From a virus (taxonomy: Duplodnaviria; Heunggongvirae; Uroviricota; Caudoviricetes), in IMG/VR virus record IMGVR_UViG_2698536610_000003: a stretch of DNA of 33,876 bases. One strand, 5' to 3'. The notes below the pieces were generated by a model, which did no database searches, was not told where the DNA came from, and was given only the letters and a program-made list of their open reading frames with translations. Of the stretch, positions 3,368 through 32,437 are shown piece after piece. The position numbers and the translations under genes are program-made. The number at the start of each line of letters is the position of its first letter. Within the stretch, counting starts at the first letter, position 1.

Positions 3368-3669
3368 TGTCCTGTTCTCATTCAGTTGTATTACTGAATA
3401 ACGCCTTAAAAATCGCCGTTATGGAAAATGGTGATTTATCTCTTATTCAACTTTGTCTTGATAAAGAAAAACGCGACATAACTGAATCTGTTATCGCGAT
3501 TTATCAGAATGAATTAAACCTCCTGTCTGATGTGGTCAATTTACTTGTTAAACGCGCTGTATTCCACAAGCAAATTTCCTCCGTGGATGAACTGACAAAA
3601 TTAACGACAGAAATCGTCAGCTATTGCGCTGATGAATTTAAGAAACTGAACGACAAAAGGAACTGGTAA
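3364..3669 (+). CDS. small early protein (P2 orf81 position)
   Basis: 101-aa ORF, 4-nt overlap with upstream gene (coupled). Confidence 0.6.
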
Positions 3670-3893
3670 TGCCGGACAACGTAGATTTCATTCAGGAACA
3701 ACAGGCTGAATTACTGGAGCGCCAGATTAACGCGGCAAGGGTAAAACATTGCGGTGCTTCTGCGCTGGTTTGCGAAGAGTGTGACGTGCCAATACCTGCT
3801 GCCCGTCGTGCGGCTTATCCGTCAGCCACGCGTTGTGTTTCCTGTCAGTCAGTCTTTGAAGCAAAAAACAAACATTACCGGAGAACGGCATGA
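3669..3893 (+). CDS. TraR/DksA-family C4 zinc-finger protein (P2 orf82 position)
   Basis: 74 aa with CEEC...CVSC (CxxC-N17-CxxC) typical of TraR/DksA zinc fingers. Confidence 0.7.
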   Translation: MPDNVDFIQEQQAELLERQINAARVKHCGASALVCEECDVPIPAARRAAYPSATRCVSCQSVFEAKNKHYRRTA

Positions 3894-4165
3894 GTATTCG
3901 TATTGAAATTGGCGAACGTTATGTCGTTACCAGTGACAGCTTTCAGTTTATTCTCCACGAGAAAAAGAGAGCGGAAAGCGGTAAAAACGCCGGTCAGGAA
4001 TGGCTGTCGGTGGTTGGTTATTACCCGAAATTAAGCCAGCTCGTTTCCGGCATGATGCATCACGATATTCTGACCGGAAGCGCAAAGTCTTTTGCTGATT
4101 TAAACGCGCAGGTTGAGCAACTCAGCAAGCGTTGTTCAGAGGCTTTTGGCTCATATGGCCGTTAA
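3890..4165 (+). CDS. small early protein (P2 orf83 position)
   Basis: 91-aa ORF immediately upstream of and overlapping gene A. Confidence 0.6.
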   Translation: MSIRIEIGERYVVTSDSFQFILHEKKRAESGKNAGQEWLSVVGYYPKLSQLVSGMMHHDILTGSAKSFADLNAQVEQLSKRCSEAFGSYGR

Positions 4166-6410
4166 AGCCTCCGGGCGTTTTGTCCCTCCATCAGCATTTG
4201 CCGCAGGCACCGGTAAGGCGTTTACCGGTGCTTATGCATGGAACGCGCCACGCGAGGCTGTCGGGCGCGAAAGACCCCTTACACGTGACGAGATGCGTCA
4301 GGTGCAAGGTGTTTTATCCACGATTAACCGCCTGCCTTACTTTTTGCGCTCGCTGTTTACTTCACGCTATGACTACATCCGGCGCAATAAAAGCCCGGTG
4401 CACGGGTTTTATTTCCTCACATCCACTTTTCAGCGTCGTTTATGGCCGCGCATTGAGCGCGTGAATCAGCGCCATGAAATGAACACCGACGCGTCGTTGC
4501 TGTTTCTGGCAGAGCGTGACCATTATGCGCGTCTGCCGGGGATGAATGACAAGGAACTGAAAAAGTTTGCCGCCCGTATCTCATCGCAGCTTTTCATGAT
4601 GTATGAGGAACTCTGCGATGCATGGGTTGATGCACATGGCGAGAAAGAATCGCTGTTTACGGATGAGGCTCAGGCGCATCTGTATGGTCATGTTGCTGGC
4701 GCTGCACGAGCTTTCAATATTTCCCCTCTCTACTGGAAAAAATACCGTAAAGGACAGATGACCACGAGGCAGGCATATTCTGCCATTGCCCGTCTGTTTA
4801 ACGATGAGTGGTGGACTCATCAGCTTAAAGGTCAGCGTATGCGCTGGCATGAGGCGTTACTGATTGCTGTCGGGGAGGTGAATAAAGACCGTTCTCCTTA
4901 TGCCAGTAAACATGCCATTCGTGATGTGCGTGCGCGCCGCCAGGCAAATCTGGAATTTCTTAAATCGTGTGACCTTGAAAACAGGGAAACCGGCGAGCGC
5001 ATCGACCTTATCAGTAAGGTGATGGGAAGTATTTCTAATCCTGAAATTCGCCGGATGGAGCTGATGAACACCATTGCCGGTATTGAGCGTTACGCCGCCG
5101 CAGAGGGTGATGTGGGGATGTTTATCACGCTGACCGCGCCGTCAAAGTATCACCCGACACGTCAGGTCGGAAAAGGCGAAAGTAAAACCGTCCAGCTAAA
5201 TCACGGCTGGAACGATGAGGCATTTAATCCAAAGGATGCGCAGCGTTATCTCTGCCGCATCTGGAGCCTGATGCGCACGGCATTCAAGGATAATGATTTA
5301 CAGGTCTACGGTTTGCGTGTCGTCGAGCCACACCACGACGGAACGCCGCACTGGCATATGATGCTTTTTTGTAATCCACGTCAGCGTAACCAGATTATCG
5401 AAACCATGCGTCGCTACGCGCTCAAAGAGGATGGCGACGAAAGAGGAGCCGAGCGAAACCGTTTTCAGGCGAAACACCTTAACCGGGGCGGTGCTGCGGG
5501 GTATATCGCGAAATACATTTCAAAAAATATCGACGGCTATGCACTGGATGGTCAGCTCGATAACGATACTGGCAGACCTCTGAAAGATACTGCCGCGGCT
5601 GTTACTGCATGGGCGTCAACGTGGCGCATCCCGCAATTTAAAACGGTTGGTCTGCCGACAATGGGGGCTTACCGTGAACTACGCAAATTGCCTCGCGGCG
5701 TCAGCATTGCTGATGAGTTTGACGAACGCGTCGAGGCTGCACGCGCTGCCGCAGACAGTGGCGATTTTGCGTTGTATATCAGTGCGCAGGGTGGGGCAAA
5801 TGTTCCGCGCGATTGCCAGACTGTCAGAGTCGCCCGTAGCCCGTCGGATGAAGTTAACGAGTACGAGGAAGAAGTCGAGAGAGTGGTCGGCATTTACGCG
5901 CCGCATCTCGGCGCGCGTCATATTCATATCACCAGAACGACGGACTGGCGCATTGTTCCGAAAGTTCCGGTCGTGGAGCCTTTAACTTTAAAAAGCGGCA
6001 TCGCCGCGCCTCGGAGTCCTGTCAATAACTGTGGAAAGCTCACCAGTGGTGATACTTCGTTACCGGCTCCCACACCTTCTGAGCACGCTGCAGCAGTGCT
6101 TAATCTGGTTGATGACGGTGTTATCGAATGGAATGACCCGGAGGTCGTGAGGGTGCTCAGGGGCGCATTAAAACACGGCCTGAGAACACCAAATCGTCAG
6201 CAAAGAAACGGAAGCCCGTTAAAACCACATGAAATTGCACCATCGGCCAGGCTGACCCGGCCGGAACGATTGCAAATTACCCGTATCCGCGTTGACCTTG
6301 CTCAGAACGGTATCAGGCCTCAGCGATGGGAGCTTGAGGCGCTGGCGCGTGGGGCGATGGTGATTTATGATAATAAAAAATTCAAATATCCAGTGATTGA
6401 TGAGTGGTAA
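4155..6410 (+). CDS. A: replication initiation protein A (HUH rolling-circle endonuclease)
   Basis: About 751 aa from ATG 4155 (track starts at 4113; MAVKASGRF matches the P2 A N-terminus as I recall). HUH motif PHWHMML and tandem-tyrosine motif YIAKYISK read directly. Confidence 0.92.
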   Translation: MAVKASGRFVPPSAFAAGTGKAFTGAYAWNAPREAVGRERPLTRDEMRQVQGVLSTINRLPYFLRSLFTSRYDYIRRNKSPVHGFYFLTSTFQRRLWPRIERVNQRHEMNTDASLLFLAERDHYARLPGMNDKELKKFAARISSQLFMMYEELCDAWVDAHGEKESLFTDEAQAHLYGHVAGAARAFNISPLYWKKYRKGQMTTRQAYSAIARLFNDEWWTHQLKGQRMRWHEALLIAVGEVNKDRSPYASKHAIRDVRARRQANLEFLKSCDLENRETGERIDLISKVMGSISNPEIRRMELMNTIAGIERYAAAEGDVGMFITLTAPSKYHPTRQVGKGESKTVQLNHGWNDEAFNPKDAQRYLCRIWSLMRTAFKDNDLQVYGLRVVEPHHDGTPHWHMMLFCNPRQRNQIIETMRRYALKEDGDERGAERNRFQAKHLNRGGAAGYIAKYISKNIDGYALDGQLDNDTGRPLKDTAAAVTAWASTWRIPQFKTVGLPTMGAYRELRKLPRGVSIADEFDERVEAARAAADSGDFALYISAQGGANVPRDCQTVRVARSPSDEVNEYEEEVERVVGIYAPHLGARHIHITRTTDWRIVPKVPVVEPLTLKSGIAAPRSPVNNCGKLTSGDTSLPAPTPSEHAAAVLNLVDDGVIEWNDPEVVRVLRGALKHGLRTPNRQQRNGSPLKPHEIAPSARLTRPERLQITRIRVDLAQNGIRPQRWELEALARGAMVIYDNKKFKYPVIDEW

Positions 6411-6539
6411 GGCTATTAGATTACGAATAAATACAGGTCTTATTGATGGATTGGGTAATAGTAAACTTTAAAAAATAATAATTGTAATGTTTTAAATTAT
6501 AGTTAAATTTCGCTTAATGACATTATCTTCTTAATATTT

Positions 6540-6569
6540 AAAGTGCCTCCCATTATTAGGGGGCACTTT
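6540..6569 (-). terminator. hairpin immediately downstream of the cargo operon (stem aaagtgcc/ggcacttt plus GC extension, 7-nt loop)
   Basis: Inverted repeat read directly, 17 nt past the PRTase stop on the minus strand, followed by an A/U-rich tract; sits between convergent A and cargo operon. Confidence 0.4.
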
Positions 6570-6585
6570 AAATTATGGGGTTAAT

Positions 6586-7869
6586 TTATTGTGGCCAGTC
6601 CCAGTTATCATATTGTTGAATTTTTTCTGATAACACTTGAGGTGCACTACCGTGAGTTACATTTTCAGCATAACCAATCGTACCGACATAGTTAATGTCA
6701 TCAACATCAAGTGTATTGGCCTCCCATGGCCGTATCTTGCGAGTTGGTTCACAGATAGAAACGTCACGATTGATGGTTTTTAACCACGATATATTTATTA
6801 CATTTGCGCCTGCAGCTTTTAGATACATTCTGGCTGTTTCATGAGCATTTCCTTCAGTGCAAAAATCATCAATAACTAATATTTTCTTACCTTTCAATTT
6901 AGGAGGGTTGGTATATCTTTCGCCGGTGATGAGGTTTTTAATAGGGGCAGGATTTAAATTAACGGTGTTTATTTGAGATGTGATGTTTACTTCTTGCTTA
7001 GCTATCCGAGCTTGCTGTGATTTAATAGCTGTTGTATGTCGTAAGAATAGATCTTTTAGATACTTTCCTTTGAATGAGACTGCTAAACCTTTTAGGTCAT
7101 GCTCCATAATGTTTGCTAGTTTATAAGGATCTTCAGCGTTATGTCCAACGTAGGTGGTTATAAAACTTGCTCCTTCACTTAAGCCAGAGAAATAAATGCT
7201 AGCACCAAGATATCTTATCCAAAAATCGGGGCTTCCAACCGATAGCTTTGCGAGGTCTCTTGCATTGGCTGAATACATTGTAAATTCAGGGACATATGTG
7301 CTAAATGGTGCTAAGGCGTAGTAGTGAACATCTTCATTAAAATGCCCTTGCCATCCCCACAACTGCTCTCTTAAGCAAAAAACATCAATAAATCTAGCGA
7401 TTTCTTTGGGTTCTGAAAATTGAAAACCGTACTCAGTAACCGGTTCATACCAGGTCGCATTAATAAATAGGGTATTCCCGTTGGTAGCTGCTTGTAAGTC
7501 TTCCTGAGAACGCCCTACATAGATCATTTCGTTTCGTTTTAATTCTAACGCAGCCATGATGAAATCTATGGCCTTCCCTGTTTGTTTTGCTGGTATGTTG
7601 TTGTCGAGTTCACGGCAAAAGTGAATTGATTCTGGGAATTTCCTTTTTAGGTATTCGTCTAGTGTTACGATCCCGTCATGTGTTCTCACGTTTCTATTTT
7701 TATTTGTCAAGAAGATAACTTTAATCCCTTTTGATGACAAAAACGCAAACAACTTACGTAATTCAGAATCGATTCTAGATTTTAGTTCCTGAGGTTGAGT
7801 GTTAGATGTTAATGGTAATACAACATCTGCGATTGAAAATATAACTGCCTTTAAATACATATTATTCAT
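6586..7869 (-). CDS. PRTase-domain protein (ComF-like) with possible HAD-like N-terminal region
   Basis: 427 aa; PRPP-binding-loop-like KILVIDDFCTEGNAHE at aa 329-344 (compare hhhhDDhhTTGgT); N-terminal 140 aa shows a HAD-like motif order (hhhh-Thr, Lys, GxxxED) but with the first Asp replaced; AT-rich; start ATG overlaps upstream gene as ATGAATAA. Confidence 0.75.
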   Translation of the reverse strand: MNNMYLKAVIFSIADVVLPLTSNTQPQELKSRIDSELRKLFAFLSSKGIKVIFLTNKNRNVRTHDGIVTLDEYLKRKFPESIHFCRELDNNIPAKQTGKAIDFIMAALELKRNEMIYVGRSQEDLQAATNGNTLFINATWYEPVTEYGFQFSEPKEIARFIDVFCLREQLWGWQGHFNEDVHYYALAPFSTYVPEFTMYSANARDLAKLSVGSPDFWIRYLGASIYFSGLSEGASFITTYVGHNAEDPYKLANIMEHDLKGLAVSFKGKYLKDLFLRHTTAIKSQQARIAKQEVNITSQINTVNLNPAPIKNLITGERYTNPPKLKGKKILVIDDFCTEGNAHETARMYLKAAGANVINISWLKTINRDVSICEPTRKIRPWEANTLDVDDINYVGTIGYAENVTHGSAPQVLSEKIQQYDNWDWPQ

Positions 7870-8911
7870 CTCCCAGAAGAGAAAGTTGCTGTGTTTTTAC
7901 ACCGGATGCTGATTTAATTAAGCTTTGCACGTCTTTAAAATCGGATAGTGGAATATTCATTATCGTAGCTGAGTACTCTGACAAGGCATGTTTAATCTCT
8001 TCTTGAGGTGTAGTTCCCCTAAGTAAAGGACAAAGTATCGCTCTTTTTAATTGAGCAGCATATCTCACAGTATGAGATGTCCCACTTTTTAGGCCCCATT
8101 CAACTGGGATCAATACATCACTTAAAGCTGCTTGAATTCTATTTCTACGAACAAAGTTTTCCTGTGATGGTTTTTGGTTTGGTAAATACTCAGTAAGAAT
8201 CAGTCCGCCATTATTTACAATATGGCCTCTCATCTCGCCACTATTTTTGGGATAATTTGAGTTTACGCCAGTACCTAACACAGCAATTGTCGGTATTTTA
8301 AATAACAGGGATGCTTCATGTGCAGATTGATCTATACCATATGCTAAACCGCTTACAGTTGAATAATCCGAATCTATAAATTGCGAGATTACTGCTTGAG
8401 TTAAATAAATTCCAAGTGCGGTTGGGTTTCTGGTGCCGACAACTCCAACACACTTTTTATCTAGCAAGGATACATTGCCTTGAGCAAACAACCAGAAAGG
8501 CGGCTCAGACAGGTCATTCAACTTGTCTGGATAGCTCGGAGAACCATAGTGGATGATTTTGTAACCACTATTATGATAATGTGTGAGTAATATTTTAGCC
8601 GTAGAAATCATGCTGTCCCGAAAAACAGACCAATTGCCTTCATTCAAATAATAAGGTTGGCGATGAAGTTTTACTCCAAGTAGATACTCAAAGTTGGCTA
8701 ATGTTTGACTGGTAACAATGTCTCTAAATCTGATTCCCTTTTGAGCAACTTTATATAGAGTCCAATAACTAACGCCATGTATTTCTGATAGTGCCAACAA
8801 AGCGGCACTTTCTGTGTTCCATCGAGCTGTTTCAATATCCGTCATAATGTTCGCCAAAATGGAAGATTTTTTATCGCTTTTATCATAGGTTTGTATAAAA
8901 GTGTAGCACAT
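7862..8911 (-). CDS. DprA/Smf-like Rossmann-fold protein
   Basis: 349 aa; core VSGLAYGIDQSAHEASL...TIAVLGTGVNSNYPKNS...FVRRNRIQAALSDVLIPVEWGLKSGTSHTVRYAAQLKRA parallels DprA Rossmann signature (SGxAxGID..AH..AL, AVLG.G....YP, RNRI.A.LS); N-terminal helical region; AT-rich. Confidence 0.8.
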   Translation of the reverse strand: MCYTFIQTYDKSDKKSSILANIMTDIETARWNTESAALLALSEIHGVSYWTLYKVAQKGIRFRDIVTSQTLANFEYLLGVKLHRQPYYLNEGNWSVFRDSMISTAKILLTHYHNSGYKIIHYGSPSYPDKLNDLSEPPFWLFAQGNVSLLDKKCVGVVGTRNPTALGIYLTQAVISQFIDSDYSTVSGLAYGIDQSAHEASLLFKIPTIAVLGTGVNSNYPKNSGEMRGHIVNNGGLILTEYLPNQKPSQENFVRRNRIQAALSDVLIPVEWGLKSGTSHTVRYAAQLKRAILCPLLRGTTPQEEIKHALSEYSATIMNIPLSDFKDVQSLIKSASGVKTQQLSLLGDE

Positions 8912-9049
8912 TAAACCAAGACTTTAGAGGGCATGTTCTTGCATCAAACTGCATGTAAAAAAACAAAAAATTAATGCACCTTAGGCCTTATCCAGTCAAT
9001 CTCGAGTGTTCACATGCATCTGCATTAAAACCGCCCCACGAAGCGGGCG

Positions 9050-9068
9050 GGCGAGGCGGGGAAAGCAC
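9050..9068. other. cos: cos site, 19-nt cohesive end sequence ggcgaggcggggaaagcac
   Basis: Exact 19-mer that I recall as the P2 cohesive end, at the expected position between the accessory region and portal gene Q. Confidence 0.75.
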
Positions 9069-9211
9069 TGCGCGCTGGCGGTGGTGCTGATTTTATTTTT
9101 TCAGCGTCTGAGCGCGTCGTGATGGCGTTTAGATTGTTCGCCGGGGCCGTTGGTGTGTCTGCGGGGTGTTTTGTGCGGTGGTGAGCGTATGAGGGCGTGA
9201 TGACGGGGTGT

Positions 9212-9233
9212 AAAAAAGCCGCCCGCAGGCGGC
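9212..9233 (-). terminator. rho-independent terminator after Q (minus-strand RNA GCCGCC-UGCG-GGCGGC followed by UUUUUU)
   Basis: Perfect 6-bp GC stem with 4-nt loop and 6-U tract read on the minus strand just past the Q stop codon. Confidence 0.7.
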
Positions 9234-9238
9234 GATGT

Positions 9239-10273
9239 TCAGCCGTTGTCAGTGTCCAGTGAGTAGTTTTTAAAGCGGATGACTTCCTGGCCGAGCCAGC
9301 CGTTTATCTCGCGGATCCTGTCCTGTAGCGGGATAAGCTCATTGCGGACAAAGACCTTTGCCACTTTCTCAATATCGCCCAGCGACCCGACGTTCTCCGG
9401 CTTGCCGCCCATCAACTGAAAGGGGATGCGGTGCGCGTCCAGCAGGTCAGCGGCGCTGGCTTTTTTGATATTAAAAAAATCGTCCTTCGTCGCCACTTCA
9501 CTGAGCGGGATAATTTTAATGCCGTCGGCTTTCCCCTGTGGGGCATAGAGAAACAGGTTTTTAAAGTTGTTGCGGCCTTTCGACTTAACCATGTTTTCGC
9601 GGAGCATTTCGATATCGTTGCGATCCTGCACGGCATCGGTGACGTACATGATGTATCCGGCATGTGCGCCGTTTTCGTAATACTTGCGGCGGAACAGCGT
9701 GGCTGATTCATTCAGCCAGGCAGAGTTAAGGGCGCTGAGATATTCCGGCAGGCCGTACAGCTCCTGATTGATATCCGGCTCCAGCAGGTGAAACACGGAG
9801 CCGGGCGTGAAAGGTGTTGGCTCGTTGAAGGACGGCACCCACCAGTAAATATCTTCTTCCACACCACGGCGGGTATATTTTGCCGGTGAGGTTTCCAGTC
9901 TGATGACCTTACCGGTGGTGCTGTAACGCTTTTCCAGAAACGCATTACCGAACACCAGAAAATCCAGCACAAAGCGGCTGAAATCCTGCTGGGAAAGCCA
10001 CGGATGCGGGATAAATGTCGAGGCCAGAATATTACGTTTGACGTAAATCGGGGAGCTGTGATGCACGGCAGCACGCAGGCTTTTTGCCAGACCGGTAAAG
10101 CTGACCGGTGGCTCATACCATCTGCCGTTACTGATGCACTCGACGTAATCCAGAATGTCACGGCGATCGAGTACCGGCACCGGCTCACCAAAGGTGAATG
10201 CCTCCATTTTCGGGGCGCTGGTGGTCATTGTTTTTGCCGCTGGTCGCGGTGTTTTCCCTTTTTTCTTGCTCAT
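9239..10273 (-). CDS. Q: portal protein Q
   Basis: 344 aa, same size and position as P2 Q; stop/start overlap (ATGA) with P. Confidence 0.93.
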   Translation of the reverse strand: MSKKKGKTPRPAAKTMTTSAPKMEAFTFGEPVPVLDRRDILDYVECISNGRWYEPPVSFTGLAKSLRAAVHHSSPIYVKRNILASTFIPHPWLSQQDFSRFVLDFLVFGNAFLEKRYSTTGKVIRLETSPAKYTRRGVEEDIYWWVPSFNEPTPFTPGSVFHLLEPDINQELYGLPEYLSALNSAWLNESATLFRRKYYENGAHAGYIMYVTDAVQDRNDIEMLRENMVKSKGRNNFKNLFLYAPQGKADGIKIIPLSEVATKDDFFNIKKASAADLLDAHRIPFQLMGGKPENVGSLGDIEKVAKVFVRNELIPLQDRIREINGWLGQEVIRFKNYSLDTDNG

Positions 10274-20911: not shown

Positions 20912-23230
20912 ATGAGCACAAAATTCAGAACCGTTATCACCACTGCCGGTGCAGCAAAGCTGGCAGCGGCAACCGCACCGGGAGGGCGGAAGGTCAACAT
21001 TACCACGATGGCCGTCGGGGATGGCGGTGGTAAATTGCCTGTCCCGGATGCCGGACAGACCGGACTTATTCACGAAGTCTGGCGACATACGCTGAACAAA
21101 ATCAGCCAGGACAAACGAAACAGTAATTATATTATCGCAGAGCTGGTTATTCCGCCGGAGGTGGGCGGTTTCTGGATGCGTGAGCTTGGCCTGTACGATG
21201 ATGCGGGAACGTTAATTGCCGTGGCGAACATGGCCGAAAGTTATAAGCCAGCTCTTGCCGAAGGCTCAGGGCGTTCGCAGACCTGTCGCATGGTCATCAT
21301 CGTCAGCAGTGTGGCCTCGGTGGAGCTGACCATTGACACCACAACGGTGATGGCGACACAGGATTACGTTGATGACAAAATTGCAGAGCACGAACAGTCA
21401 CGACGTCACCCGGACGCCTCGCTGACCGCAAAAGGTTTTACTCAGTTAAGCAGTGCGACCAACAGCACGTCTGAAACACTGGCCGCAACGCCGAAAGCGG
21501 TAAAGGCCGCCTATGACCTTGCTAACGGGAAATATACCGCACAGGACGCTACCACAGCACGAAAAGGCCTTGTCCAGCTCAGTAGTGCGACCAACAGCAC
21601 GTCTGAAACACTGGCCGCAACGCCGAAAGCGGTAAAGGCCGCCTATGACCTTGCTAACGGGAAATACACTGCACAGGACGCCACTACAGCGCGAAAAGGT
21701 CTTGCCCAGCTCAGTAGCGCCACCAACAGCGATTCTGAAACGCTTGCGGCAACACCAAAGGCGGTTAAGACAGCGTATGACCTTGCTAACGGGAAATACA
21801 CTGCACAGGATGCCACCACGGTGCGAAAAGGTCTTGTCCAGCTCAGTAGCGCCACCAACAGTGATTCTGAAACCCTCGCGGCAACGCCAAAAGCAGTGAA
21901 GTCTGCCTATGACAATGCTGAAAAACGTCTTCAGAAAGATCAGAACGGTGCGGATATTCCGGGAAAGGATACCTTCACGAAAAATATCGGTGCCTGTCGT
22001 GCTTATAGCGGCGCTTTGAGCACTGAAGCCGGAAACTGGACAACCGCTCAGTTTATTGAATGGCTGGATTCCCGTGGTGCATTTAATCATCCGTACTGGA
22101 TGTGCAAAGGCTCCTGGTCATATGCAAATAACAAAATCATTACGGATACCGGATGTGGTGATATCCACCTGGCTGGTTGTGTCGTCGAGGTCATGGGAAC
22201 TAAATCTGCAATCACTATCCGAGTGACCACGCCGACAACATCAAGTGGTGGCGGTACAACCAGCGCGCAATTCACTTACATTAATCATGGGGACGGCTAC
22301 TCCCCCGGCTGGCGTCGTGACTGGAATCGTCAGGGCGACTCAATGACCGGAACGATTAATCAGGATGGCGGAAGCCAGAATGCCTATATGTCTACGGCCT
22401 TATGTTCAGGCACCAGAGGCGGCAAAAAATATCTCAGAAAGTTTCGTGGTGGAGAAGGAGATACTATCTGGCATGAAACAGTACAGGGCGAGGTAATTCG
22501 CTGGGCGACAGGTAATACTGATGCTCGGGAAGAATTATCACTCAGCTCTGTTTATGGTCTTCGTTCAAGAGGTGAAATTACATCGCTCAGTGCTAATGGT
22601 CTGCGCGTTGCTTATGGCAATTATGGATTCTTTATCAGGAATGATGGCGGCAGCACATATTTAATGCTGACGGCCTCTGGCGATAAATTTGGGACATGGA
22701 ACGGCTTAAGACCGCTGACTATCAATAACGCCAATGGCGGAGTGTCAATGGGGCATGGCCTGAGTGTTACAGGTGATATTGTCTCAAGTACCAAAGTACG
22801 TGCCGGTAGCGGGAAAAAGTTCACGGTCAGCAGCAGCAATACATCCACGAAGGAAGCCGCATTCAATTTGTGGGGAAACTCAAGTCGTCCTGTGGTGGCT
22901 GAATTAGGTGATGATGCAGGCTGGCATTTTTACAGTCAGAGAAATACAGATAACAGCATCACTTTTGCTGTTAACGGTCAGGTATCACCATCTAACTATG
23001 GCAACTTTGATTCACGCTATGTCCGGGATATCCGGCTTGGTGGTGCTGCCACATACAAACCTGCGAACAATGGCATGACATGGACACATCAGGCACCGTC
23101 CGGGTGTGTATATTCTGGCATTATTGTTCAGGATACCGGCTCAAACTCTGCCGATAACATTGGTGGCGTATATTACAGACCGGTGCAGAAATACATTAAC
23201 GGGACATGGTATAACGTGGCACAGGTATAA
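20912..23230 (+). CDS. H: tail fibre protein H (mosaic: P2-like N-terminus, four tandem fibre repeats, divergent distal domain)
   Basis: 772 aa (P2 H is shorter as I recall); conserved N-terminal 170 aa; repeats QLSSATNS[TD]SETLAATPKAVK...; C-terminal half unlike P2 H. Confidence 0.88.
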   Translation: MSTKFRTVITTAGAAKLAAATAPGGRKVNITTMAVGDGGGKLPVPDAGQTGLIHEVWRHTLNKISQDKRNSNYIIAELVIPPEVGGFWMRELGLYDDAGTLIAVANMAESYKPALAEGSGRSQTCRMVIIVSSVASVELTIDTTTVMATQDYVDDKIAEHEQSRRHPDASLTAKGFTQLSSATNSTSETLAATPKAVKAAYDLANGKYTAQDATTARKGLVQLSSATNSTSETLAATPKAVKAAYDLANGKYTAQDATTARKGLAQLSSATNSDSETLAATPKAVKTAYDLANGKYTAQDATTVRKGLVQLSSATNSDSETLAATPKAVKSAYDNAEKRLQKDQNGADIPGKDTFTKNIGACRAYSGALSTEAGNWTTAQFIEWLDSRGAFNHPYWMCKGSWSYANNKIITDTGCGDIHLAGCVVEVMGTKSAITIRVTTPTTSSGGGTTSAQFTYINHGDGYSPGWRRDWNRQGDSMTGTINQDGGSQNAYMSTALCSGTRGGKKYLRKFRGGEGDTIWHETVQGEVIRWATGNTDAREELSLSSVYGLRSRGEITSLSANGLRVAYGNYGFFIRNDGGSTYLMLTASGDKFGTWNGLRPLTINNANGGVSMGHGLSVTGDIVSSTKVRAGSGKKFTVSSSNTSTKEAAFNLWGNSSRPVVAELGDDAGWHFYSQRNTDNSITFAVNGQVSPSNYGNFDSRYVRDIRLGGAATYKPANNGMTWTHQAPSGCVYSGIIVQDTGSNSADNIGGVYYRPVQKYINGTWYNVAQV
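21443..21928 (+). repeat. in-frame tandem repeat, 3 full copies of 132 bp (44 aa) plus a partial fourth, inside H
   Basis: Copies start at 21443, 21575, 21707, 21839; near-identical DNA with scattered synonymous and few non-synonymous differences. Confidence 0.9.
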
Positions 23231-23761: not shown

Positions 23762-24043
23762 GTTGTATGAGCTCTGGTGTGAGCTTACATATCTATGGCA
23801 CAGAGTAAAGACTAATCTGACAGTCCGCTCTGTGCCAATAGCGGACGTAACAAGTATGATATTGGATGATGTTGCGAGGGGTGGTAGTCTGAAGCACGGC
23901 ATACGGCAATCGACCTAAAATGATGCCGTATTCAAGGAATTCTGGTATATGAGGCCTGTAAAATTGTTAACAGGATGCATACTTGTATGCAGCGCAAGTT
24001 ACCTTTAAGTTGGTTCAATTGAATAAACTATGTTTTCCCATGC

Positions 24044-24071
24044 TTGCATCATCGCTAGGTGAACATAAAAT
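24044..24071 (+). promoter_or_regulatory. candidate sigma70 promoter for the hotspot-2 cargo gene: -35 TTGCAT (24044..24049), 16-nt spacer, -10 TAAAAT (24066..24071)
   Basis: Hexamers and spacing read directly; about 36 bp upstream of ATG 24108, which has a GGAG RBS. Confidence 0.45.
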
Positions 24072-24107
24072 GTTCTGGAGATTAACGTTTAGGTTTATAG
24101 GAGCTTT

Positions 24108-25319
24108 ATGAGAGTAGAATTCACAGAAAGAACAAAGAATGTACTTGCTGGGAGAGCAGGATACCAATGTAGCCATCCTCAATGTTCAATAATAACTATT
24201 GGCCCAGGTGAAAAAGAGGATGAGACATCCAGCATCGGTGAGGCATCACATATTTATAGTGCAGCTAAAAATGGCCCCAGAGGGCAAGGTGGGCTAACAG
24301 AAGAACAGTTAAAAAGCCCTGAGAATGGAATTTGGCTATGTAAGGTACACGCAAGGTTAGTTGATACAAATAATGGAGCAGGATTTACCGCATCACAACT
24401 AATTAGTTGGAAAAAATATCATGAGGAATTCATTAAACATCACCAGGGAAGGATCGTCAATAAATTACATTGGATATCAAAACTATCAATAGTTGATAGT
24501 CCTTTATTTCAAGATTCAATAAGCATCGACTTTGCAAAAATAACAATTATTGAGAGTGATAGTAATGGCGCAGGGAAAACAGCAATATGCGAGTGGTTAT
24601 CAAGTGTCAGTGCAATAAATAGACTTGAGCGCTGGGTTAATTGTGAAAAGCTCAATATTGAAATTCATTTGCACACGCCAGAGCCACACTTAATTGAAGT
24701 GAGTGTAAATAGCGGAAGGATTTCCTATAAAGTTGATTCTCTTGACATTACCTCAAGTCCTTTTCCTTTTGCATGCTATTTTTTTGATTTTAATTACTCA
24801 AAGAAAAAATATAATAAAACATCTAACTTTTTTGCTGAGTTCATAAATATATCGCCAGTGCTACTTGAGAGTCTTTTTGATTATGTATGCAGAAACAAAA
24901 AAGGCATACTTAAATCAATCAGATTTGCTACTCAGGAAGAGCTGGAACAGGATGATGATAGTGAAGATGAAAAAGAGCGAGATATTCATGATATCTATTG
25001 CATGATACAAGGTAATGATTCTTATTTGCCTTTCGAGTGTTTATCTGGAAGTGAAAAAACTAGAGTGCTATTGGATGTTATAATCGCATCATTAAATGAG
25101 CGTTCCAAATACACACCGACACTACTTTTTATAGAAATGAATGAAACCTTTTTATCAAAGGAATCTTTTAAACCATACATTGAAAGATTGAATTCCATTG
25201 AGACTTCATTTCAAACCATCGTAACAACTCATTCGAACATATTAAATGAGTGTTCCGTAGGTTTTCCCCGTTATGAATTGATAAAAGGTATCAACACATC
25301 AACCTTGAGGAAAATATAA
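24108..25319 (+). CDS. HNH endonuclease fused to compact ABC-type (AAA_21-like) ATPase; candidate defence protein
   Basis: 403 aa. N-terminus: Zn-finger/HNH layout C21-x4-C26 ... ASHIY (H48) ... ENGIWLCKVH (N73, C78, H81) ... D86. C-terminus: Walker A-like SNGAGKT (K157), ABC signature-like LSGSEK (312-317), degenerate Walker B TLLFIEMNE (338-346), H-loop IVTTHS (H375). Strongly AT-rich. Confidence 0.75.
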   Translation: MRVEFTERTKNVLAGRAGYQCSHPQCSIITIGPGEKEDETSSIGEASHIYSAAKNGPRGQGGLTEEQLKSPENGIWLCKVHARLVDTNNGAGFTASQLISWKKYHEEFIKHHQGRIVNKLHWISKLSIVDSPLFQDSISIDFAKITIIESDSNGAGKTAICEWLSSVSAINRLERWVNCEKLNIEIHLHTPEPHLIEVSVNSGRISYKVDSLDITSSPFPFACYFFDFNYSKKKYNKTSNFFAEFINISPVLLESLFDYVCRNKKGILKSIRFATQEELEQDDDSEDEKERDIHDIYCMIQGNDSYLPFECLSGSEKTRVLLDVIIASLNERSKYTPTLLFIEMNETFLSKESFKPYIERLNSIETSFQTIVTTHSNILNECSVGFPRYELIKGINTSTLRKI

Positions 25320-25516
25320 AATAATCATTGTGTGATAAATTTTTAAAATGCCATTGTTTGTCAGGTCGAACTGGGTAAATGGATATAGTATTCATTCAAT
25401 AAACTGAATAAACCGTTGTCAACGTCCGCTCCTCGCTCAAAGCAGACAGTCAGATTTGATAGCATTTGGGCTATGTAAATTGTCAGGCGGAAAATGAGTG
25501 AGTACAAATCAGGACA

Positions 25517-32343: not shown

Positions 32344-32370
32344 AAAAAATAAGCCCGTGTAAGGGAGATT
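32344..32370. repeat. attR: attR core (aaaaaataagcccgtgtaagggagatt), identical to 477..503
   Basis: Exact direct repeat of the left core; coincides with the 3' end of cyaR. Confidence 0.9.
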
Positions 32371-32430
32371 ACACAGGCTAAGGAGGTGGTTCCTGGTACA
32401 GCTAGCATTTTATGGGTTATGTTTTTCAGC
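32344..32430 (-). ncRNA. cyaR: CyaR (RyeE) small regulatory RNA, 87 nt
   Basis: Minus-strand sequence GCUGAAAAACAUAACCCAUAAAAUGCUAGCUGUACCAGGAACCACCUCCUUAGCCUGUGUAAUCUCCCUUACACGGGCUUAUUUUUU matches CyaR as I recall it, including the CACCUCCUUA seed region; located next to yegQ as in E. coli. Confidence 0.88.
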
Positions 32431-32437
32431 GAAACGG

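Follow-up and report, generated by a model that had tools for sequence, protein, structure and literature searches.

In bacteriophage P2, the stretch between gene A and the cohesive-end site cos holds tin and old, which are expressed by the lysogen and exclude other phages. Cargo found next to cos at this hotspot of P2-like phages was tested by Rousset et al. (2022), who showed that a system consisting of a DprA-like protein and a phosphoribosyltransferase (PRTase) protects against T7 and lambda, and who noted the link of this pair to the shosTA toxin-antitoxin (PMC9122126). Millman et al. (2022) validated the system independently under the name ShosTA (Shosta) and reported that a shosA deletion could not be transformed (bioRxiv 10.1101/2022.05.11.491447). 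Further references to ShosTA are Kimelman et al. (2012), Pu et al. (2025; PDB 8ZVA-8ZVD) and Yang et al. (2026; PDB 9VZO, 9W2P, 9W2Q). Here we analyzed a stretch of viral DNA of 33,876 nt (IMG/VR record IMGVR_UViG_2698536610_000003; hereafter the window), and we regard it as virtually certain that its positions 6408..9004 are a ShosTA anti-phage toxin-antitoxin cassette, which a P2-like prophage at cyaR carries as accessory cargo in its cos-proximal hotspot. ShosTA at the P2 hotspot is an already known, characterized system in an already described location, and the discovery value of the locus is small: the system, its location, its defense phenotype, crystal structures and a working mechanism have all been published for identical or nearly identical proteins. 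The window adds corrected limits for the two genes, a private allele of the antitoxin and, upstream of the operon, a conserved control region containing phased repeats.

A first-pass annotation of the window, made from its sequence, had referred to a published DprA-like/PRTase hotspot system of unknown mechanism. The publication is that of Rousset et al. (PMC9122126); the mechanism has since been addressed in two structural and mechanistic papers (PMC11961720, PMC12961424). Using the genes of avian pathogenic Escherichia coli (APEC) O1 under their native promoter, Pu et al. (2025) observed ~10^6-fold protection against T7 and abortive-infection behavior at the population level (PMC11961720). 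The toxin, ShosT, consists of an N-terminal pyrophosphatase (amino acids 1-164) and a PRTase that binds phosphoribosyl pyrophosphate (PRPP; amino acids 165-424), and its expression perturbs purine metabolism and results in filamentation, genome duplications and death (PMC11961720). Its toxicity is abolished by D331A/D332A and merely weakened by the pyrophosphatase mutation R56A (PMC11961720). The antitoxin, ShosA, combines a SAM domain with a DprA-type Rossmann domain, binds single-stranded DNA (ssDNA) but not ShosT, and is unstable through its C-terminal tail; toxicity is released by T7 Gp0.7 or when transcription or translation is transiently blocked (PMC11961720). Yang et al. (2026) described ShosT as a monomeric, non-canonical PRTase and ShosA as a dimer that binds RecA via K200 and R206, a contact needed for antitoxin activity; excess ssDNA disrupted the ShosA-RecA interaction, and phage ssDNA was proposed as a second trigger (PMC12961424). 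From the published work on a ShosT identical to that of the window, PRPP binding (R285, D331/D332) is required for toxicity, and from that on a ShosA differing by one substitution, antitoxin activity needs ssDNA binding, dimerization and RecA binding. ShosT and ShosA neither co-purified nor pulled each other down (PMC11961720, PMC12961424), and because ShosA counteracts ShosT without binding it, the pair is classed in the literature as a type IV toxin-antitoxin. Toxicity, neutralization and protection were demonstrated with the APEC O1 proteins, in which ShosT is identical to the window's and ShosA has His at residue 100 (PMC11961720, PMC12961424), and with the P2-hotspot pair (PMC9122126).

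The two open reading frames (ORFs) that the first-pass annotation had placed in an AT-rich minus-strand operon were found exactly where it put them, as maximal ORFs at 7862..8911 (349 amino acids) and 6586..7869 (427 amino acids). The upstream protein matched the PADLOC ShosA profile (PDLC02997; 5e-231, 763 bits), with amino acids 23-349 of the long ORF on profile positions 1-327, as well as Pfam DNA_processg_A (PF02481; 8e-60). The downstream protein matched the PADLOC ShosT profile (PDLC03012; 4e-296, 980 bits) from end to end, amino acids 1-427 on profile positions 1-427. The earlier proposal of an anti-phage pair of a DprA-like and a PRTase protein was thus borne out by full-length matches to both members. 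In a search of PDB sequences, ShosT was identical at 427 of 427 residues to chain 8ZVB_A ("ShosT"), and ShosA equaled 9VZO_A ("DprA-like antitoxin protein ShosA") except for one residue, H100Y, which also separates it from 8ZVA. The Pfam PRTase family (Pribosyltran) scored 22 bits in the downstream protein against a cut-off of 26.3, and a HAD match was likewise sub-threshold; the PRTase domain was assigned despite this because ShosT is identical to the protein crystallized with bound PRPP (PMC11961720). The PRTase assignment of the first-pass annotation was therefore correct; it missed the N-terminal HAD-like pyrophosphatase. Its link to ComF and natural transformation found no sequence support: in sequence-level comparison, no ComF family was among the NCBIfam matches of ShosT at E<=1, and the PRTase domain alone, searched permissively against the PDB at E<=10, matched only ShosT itself and the PRPP loop of generic PRTases, with no ComFC.

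The locus of APEC O1, the strain used by Pu et al. (2025), is the same system at the same A-cos position, with the same gene order and the same junction. It is 99.4% identical at the nucleotide level, with 15 differences in 2639 nt, of which the only non-synonymous one is ShosA H100Y and the other 14 are silent or non-coding. DNA of 99.4-99.7% identity was found in APEC O1, in ~28 further complete E. coli genomes and in phages P24C9 and 10W. The window proteins have all of the published catalytic residues. In the numbering of the papers, ShosT has the PRPP-binding and toxicity residues K280, R285, D331, D332 and H240, and ShosA has the ssDNA-binding residues R139, R234 and R261 and the dimer residues L181 and F182; the RecA-contact residues K200 and R206 are present too, as follows from identity apart from H100Y. 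Thus, full-length ShosT and ShosA profiles, adjacent same-strand genes with the antitoxin first, and the required residues are all found together. The acidic pair of the PRPP loop, which the first-pass annotation had picked out as D334/D335, is indeed there, and it is D331/D332 in the published numbering. H204 and F301 of Yang et al. (2026) do not match the window proteins, yet these are identical to the proteins of that study at those positions. The residue labels in PMC12961424 are themselves inconsistent, with H204 in the text and H240E among the mutants, and with "F301" being Ser in the identical protein.

At residue 100 of ShosA the window encodes Tyr (TAT, nt 8548), where APEC O1, strain 4114, EC812A1 and P24C9 have His. 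No exact match to a 61-mer around this codon was found in the complete E. coli genomes of the collection, which gave 28 matches with one mismatch each. Located where the Rossmann domain starts, the residue does not belong to those for which a function has been published. H100Y is private to the window, and it might conceivably alter the stability of ShosA and hence the trigger threshold of the system.

Other systems resemble the pair less closely. PsyrTA (RqlHI), whose antitoxin is likewise DprA-like, has been placed with ShosTA in one published group, the DprA-antitoxin defense systems, and ShosA gave a weak match to the PADLOC PsyrA profile (5e-24). The toxin had no PsyrT match, and the ShosA and ShosT profiles scored far higher, so PsyrTA was rejected. 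ShosA shares with DprA/Smf of natural transformation a Rossmann-type DprA domain, an N-terminal SAM-like domain, dimerization, and the binding of ssDNA and RecA. Unlike DprA/Smf, it has an extra C-terminal helix, a labile tail and an antitoxin role, and it is prophage-borne; as a canonical DprA/Smf it fell below both equivalog cut-offs (TIGR00732, 172.3 bits vs. 191.15; NF008007, 129.8 vs. 495). ShosT shares the PRPP loop with its acidic pair (VIDDF) and the Rossmann-like PRTase fold with retron PRTase effectors and type I PRTases (APRT, OPRT), as well as use as an abortive-infection effector. It is unlike them in being monomeric, with a six-stranded core, an elongated pyrophosphate loop, a fused pyrophosphatase and no identified base substrate, and no reverse transcriptase was found near ShosTA among the window ORFs. 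With tin and old of P2 the cassette has in common the A-cos locus and the biological role; the sequences and mechanisms are unrelated.

In BLAST against the P2 record, homology stopped at 6407 and restarted at 9005, with none across the interval, which delimits a cargo of 2.6 kb in place of tin and old and upholds the position between A and cos given by the first-pass annotation. The GC content is 36-39% over ~6250-9000 vs. 52-57% in the flanks, and 37.0% in 6411..9004 vs. 52.7% in the remainder of the window. Gene A ends at 6410; on the other side lie the portal gene Q (9239..10273, minus strand) and, beyond it, the terminase gene P, also on the minus strand. The linear genome of the inducible P2-like phage P24C9 ends at the cos site listed in Table 1, and the window is collinear with this phage over 469..32370. 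A CyaR/RyeE small RNA gene was found at 32347..32432 on the minus strand (Rfam, 100.7 bits), just where P24C9 homology ends (32370), which places the integration site of the prophage at cyaR. Because of this collinearity, and of CyaR/RyeE at the right end, the window is a complete P2-like prophage with short host flanks. A tRNA scan of the window found no tRNA gene; within 6411..9049 neither the Rfam nor the tRNA scan gave a match, CyaR being the sole Rfam match in the window.

When 5426 E. coli genomes were searched with 5900..9400, a query that spans both junctions, 30 were found to carry the ShosTA cargo and were covered over the full query. Each of these copies sits between A and Q of a P2-like prophage, in a row annotated as replication endonuclease, hypothetical protein, DprA and portal. 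A further 2196 genomes matched the flanks only and held other cargo (e.g., DUF2975 with Panacea, or HNH with a hypothetical protein). Conserved flanks with varying content are hotspot behavior, as expected of cos-proximal (tin/old) cargo in P2. The locus is also present in the inducible phages P24C9 and 10W. Against the refuting conditions named in the first-pass annotation, the outcome favors its reading throughout: the pair has profile support, its protective effect has been published for an identical ShosT with a ShosA of one substitution, and its E. coli copies are without exception in P2-like prophages. A scan of genome contigs returned homologs outside E. coli in Enterobacter (90%), Dryocola (81%), Brenneria (67%) and a record labeled Martelella (65%), followed at 35-38% by Alphaproteobacteria and one Lentimicrobiaceae genome. 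A ShosA homolog stood directly 5′ of ShosT in nine of nine loci from other species, in defense-island or integrase contexts, and one of these loci (Enterobacter) is at the P2 hotspot.

From the published work and the residues retained, ShosT of the window, with its HAD-like pyrophosphatase and PRPP-binding PRTase, would disturb purine metabolism and damage DNA, and ShosA, with its SAM and DprA fold, would counteract this damage through ssDNA binding and RecA. Phage infection would remove the protection given by ShosA, so that the toxin is released and the infection is abortive. The cassette is presumably expressed from the lysogen and would protect the host, and thereby the prophage, against other phages. 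The release step may be the shut-off of host transcription (T7 Gp0.7), which would stop the resupply of the unstable ShosA, or the drawing of ShosA off RecA by phage ssDNA, or both. No evidence contradicts the identification as ShosTA; the weak points concern the mechanism, the H100Y allele and the promoter. No acceptor base for ShosT has been identified, and purines did not bind in differential scanning fluorimetry (PMC11961720). Cultures did not collapse earlier at high multiplicity of infection, which is unusual for classical abortive infection (PMC11961720), and the two mechanistic papers propose different triggers (PMC11961720, PMC12961424). The search for a promoter of the pair yielded none with a good -35 element. 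Finally, H100Y is absent from the complete E. coli genomes of the collection, and we only infer that the window allele is active. Sequence alone can advance neither the acceptor substrate of the ShosT PRTase nor the phage signal that releases the toxin.

Regarding this signal, the proposal that comes close to an even chance is that the phage shuts off host transcription, through the action of T7 Gp0.7 on RNA polymerase, whereupon labile ShosA decays faster than ShosT and the existing ShosT kills or arrests the cell. Co-expression of Gp0.7 with ShosTA was lethal (Pu et al., 2025), ShosA protein fell after infection while ShosT stayed constant, and transient chloramphenicol or rifampicin was toxic only to cells carrying ShosTA (PMC11961720). 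The labile C-terminal tail of ShosA (amino acids 314-327) is intact and unchanged in the window. This proposal leaves escape mutants in the phage SSB and primase-helicase unexplained, does not account for lambda and SECphi phages, which are without Gp0.7, and sits uneasily with the fact that early culture collapse was not seen. Those escape mutations do fit a trigger in which ssDNA from phage replication occupies ShosA and breaks the ShosA-RecA contact, leaving the DNA damage of ShosT unrepaired, a proposal that we hold possible in a more tentative way. In its favor, ShosA binds RecA, the mutations K200E and R206E abolish this binding together with antitoxin activity, and the pull-down between ShosA and RecA is inhibited by ssDNA in excess (Yang et al., 2026; PMC12961424). 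Against it, T7 SSB co-expressed with ShosTA was not toxic (PMC11961720), the RecA interface is an AlphaFold 3 model, and sensing was shown in vitro only (PMC12961424). The two triggers are compatible and not mutually exclusive.

Defense could instead be a side effect of prophage addiction, with the pair stabilizing the P2 prophage by killing cells that lose it. Such a role would suit a genuine toxin-antitoxin pair with a labile antitoxin, the failure to transform a shosA deletion (bioRxiv 10.1101/2022.05.11.491447) and the fact that every E. coli copy is prophage-borne. We consider it improbable, given the strong and specific defense phenotypes obtained under the native promoter (PMC11961720, PMC9122126) and the unrelated defense genes, not stability genes, that other P2 phages hold at the same position (PMC9122126). 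Moreover, homologs elsewhere lie in defense islands beside restriction-modification and NERD-helicase genes, and an integrated prophage, unlike a plasmid, is not lost by segregation. Very improbable indeed is a repurposed natural-transformation module (DprA with ComF) that processes ssDNA directly, in place of a metabolic toxin with a repair-type antitoxin: ShosA does have the DprA fold and binds ssDNA and, like DprA, RecA, and ComFC proteins also have a PRTase-like fold, but ShosT lacks a ComF family match at E<=1 and shows only weak PRPP-loop matches to OPRT, XPRT and APRT, is a PRPP binder with a pyrophosphatase as additional domain and disturbs the metabolism of purines, and ShosA stays under both DprA equivalog cut-offs.

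The limits of both ShosTA genes differ at their 5′ ends from those of the maximal ORFs (Table 1), by 66 nt for shosA and by 9 nt for shosT. The operon reads leftward, with shosA (8845..7862) followed by shosT (7860..6586). The ShosA start is Met23 of the long ORF (ATG at 8845), which is kept in the homologous loci L006-L010 as the first residue of "MTDxExARWNTESAALL", whereas at Met1 of the long ORF (8911) L006 has Thr, and in L007 and L008 an in-frame stop rules out a start there. Met23 is also where ShosA begins in RefSeq, in both PDB constructs and in the PADLOC profile. The 22 codons ahead of it are most likely, judging from the motifs that they hold and from the lack of conservation of Met1, a non-coding promoter or 5′ leader. 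The shosT start is Met4 of the long ORF (ATG at 7860), within "M-x-LK-A/G-VIFS", which is conserved in all homologs. The string ATGAATAA, at which the first-pass annotation had let the two genes overlap, does occur at the junction; its upstream ATG (7869) is destroyed in L007 (GATAAATAAATG; GATAAA TAA ATG) and missing from L009-L014. A Shine-Dalgarno sequence, GGGAG, precedes the ATG at 7860 by 9 nt and that at 7869 by 0 nt. Because the conserved shosT start is at 7860, the genes do not overlap and are 1 nt apart (TAA-t-ATG), an arrangement which, with the Shine-Dalgarno sequence inside shosA, suggests that they are probably translationally coupled. An E. coli variant of 95.5% identity retains both candidate starts, and its first 22 codons are unchanged; because this variant is uninformative, the start codons were taken from the distant homologs. 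RefSeq calls shosT inconsistently, with 424 amino acids in APEC O1 (where ShosA has 327, as in the published numbering) and 427 in other records, and the corrected limits should be useful for annotation.

Table 1. Positions of the ShosTA genes, their domains and the surrounding elements in the window.
Feature	Position	Strand	Basis or remark
AT-rich ShosTA cargo island	6408..9004	-	P2 homology break, GC drop, conserved flanks
shosA, antitoxin, 327 amino acids	7862..8845	-	PADLOC, Pfam, PDB; start by conservation and RefSeq
shosA SAM-like domain, amino acids 1-94	8845..8564	-	Limits from PMC11961720
shosA DprA-type Rossmann domain, amino acids 95-313	8563..7907	-	Limits from PMC11961720
shosA labile C-terminal tail, amino acids 314-327	7906..7865	-	Limits from PMC11961720
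shosA-shosT junction	7861..7874	-	GGGAG 7874..7870 in shosA end, TAA 7864..7862, 1-nt spacer 7861, ATG 7860
shosT, toxin, 424 amino acids	6586..7860	-	PADLOC, identity to 8ZVB; start by conservation
shosT HAD-like pyrophosphatase domain, amino acids 1-164	7860..7369	-	Limits from PMC11961720
shosT non-canonical PRTase domain, amino acids 165-424, with PRPP-loop D331/D332	7368..6589	-	Limits from PMC11961720
22-codon N-terminal extension of long shosA ORF	8846..8911	-	Met1 unconserved; holds TATGAT and TTTTGGCGA
Three (C/G)ATGC(A/C) motifs, candidate operator	8930..8955	-	At 8955, 8945 and 8935, exact 10-bp phasing
Best sigma-70 match upstream, TTGACT-18-ATTAAT with TG	8970..8999	-	Relaxed scan
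Perfect-stem hairpin, 17 nt 3′ of shosT stop	6540..6569		RNA fold -21.8 kcal/mol on minus strand, -24.2 on plus
Terminator-like hairpin in P2 backbone, just inside cos	9031..9050	-	With 9218..9233, would shield ShosTA from late transcription
P2 cos 19-mer, GGCGAGGCGGGGAAAGCAC	9050..9068	+	Exact match; right edge of hotspot
Second terminator-like hairpin between Q and cassette	9218..9233	-	As for 9031..9050

A conserved 5′ control region and a 3′ hairpin are part of the cassette itself. When the upstream region of the window was aligned (alignment A1) with those of the 95.5% E. coli variant, the Enterobacter copy and two Dryocola copies, ~115 nt 5′ of the ATG at 8845 (8846..~8960) were found to be conserved, also outside P2 contexts. 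This block holds an invariant ACCTATGATA, with TATGAT at 8887..8882, and has TTTTGGCGA just ahead of the shosA start codon. The columns of the three phased ATGC motifs are largely invariant, Dryocola included; the phased pattern is present in all close copies, and it gave a single match in the window and no match in 100 shuffles. The first-pass annotation had seen no convincing promoter in 8912..9049, which is understandable, as the conserved block runs partly into the sequence that it presumed to be coding. In a consensus promoter scan of 6300..9300, no minus-strand match fell in 8846..9049, and the total of matches was no higher than in shuffles. The best relaxed match, TTGACT-18-ATTAAT (8999..8970), was not adopted as the promoter, being unconserved in the Dryocola copies and outside P2 and separated from the genes by an insertion sequence in strain 4114. 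TATGAT at 8887..8882 was not assigned as a promoter either, having no acceptable -35 element. In strain 4114 (L002, NZ_CP071328) the inserted IS5-family element (4053..5106; ~1057 bp plus an apparent 9-bp duplication) sits at the window equivalent of 8951..8962, immediately 5′ of the conserved shosA leader block. It disrupts neither gene and separates the cassette from the promoter candidate closest to consensus.

It is conceivable, but we think unlikely, that 8846..~8960 with its phased repeats serves as an operator for autoregulation of the cassette, by ShosA or by a host factor, which would tie the antitoxin level to transcription; a separate suggestion of the same low rank is that H100Y shifts the trigger threshold. 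ShosA does show weak binding to double-stranded DNA. Neither PMC11961720 nor PMC12961424 mentions promoter mapping, autoregulation or the phased motifs, and the "native promoter" of both papers is an uncharacterized promoter/operator to which the conserved block points. If true, such autoregulation would give a direct genetic handle on the disputed trigger by shut-off and decay.

Downstream, the hairpin behind shosT is a probable transcript-end or insulating structure between the convergent genes A and shosT, to judge by its predicted fold. It has no U-tract on either strand. The Enterobacter copy (L006) has the equivalent hairpin with altered stem bases, and L008 has a different hairpin at the same place. 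Two terminator-like hairpins lie between Q and the cassette, and ShosTA should therefore escape read-through from leftward P2 late (P-Q) transcription.

Among the loci outside E. coli, the island of Dryocola sp. BD613 (L008) contains a P4-type integrase, a NERD helicase and a type I HsdR. In this non-P2 island, a cos-like sequence (~16/19 to P2 cos) was seen 5′ of shosA at ~4815..4860, which suggests mobility of the cassette among elements that have a cos site, such as phages and satellites. Three alphaproteobacterial loci (L012, L013 and L014) have two tandem ShosA-ShosT pairs of different subtypes at ~3400..7250, a short-toxin subtype (237 amino acids, PADLOC PDLC03962) followed directly by a long-toxin one. 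In six RefSeq chromosome records (NZ_CP039298, NZ_CM128591, NZ_CP069710, NZ_CP071328, NZ_CP116046 and NZ_CP062211), base 1 of the chromosome is P2 gene A ("replication endonuclease"), and it appears that the replication gene of the prophage, rather than dnaA, was used to rotate these assemblies. Elsewhere in the window, the distal part of the tail-fiber region (21523..22997), the usual host-range variable segment, is 77% identical to P24C9 or unalignable. A second P2 variable locus (23855..25420; the Z/fun position, between the tail-fiber assembly and sheath genes) contains a single ORF of 403 amino acids at 24108..25319 on the plus strand, where P24C9 has NUDIX and HAD genes instead. Its N-terminus is HNH-like and its C-terminus resembles an ABC/SMC-type ATPase; Pfam matches were sub-threshold, and the matching PHROGs families are of unknown function. 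PADLOC matched the N-terminal 120 amino acids only, to the candidate system PDC-M68A (3.6e-22) and to HNH effector models, and the ORF is probably another defense gene, less well characterized than ShosTA.

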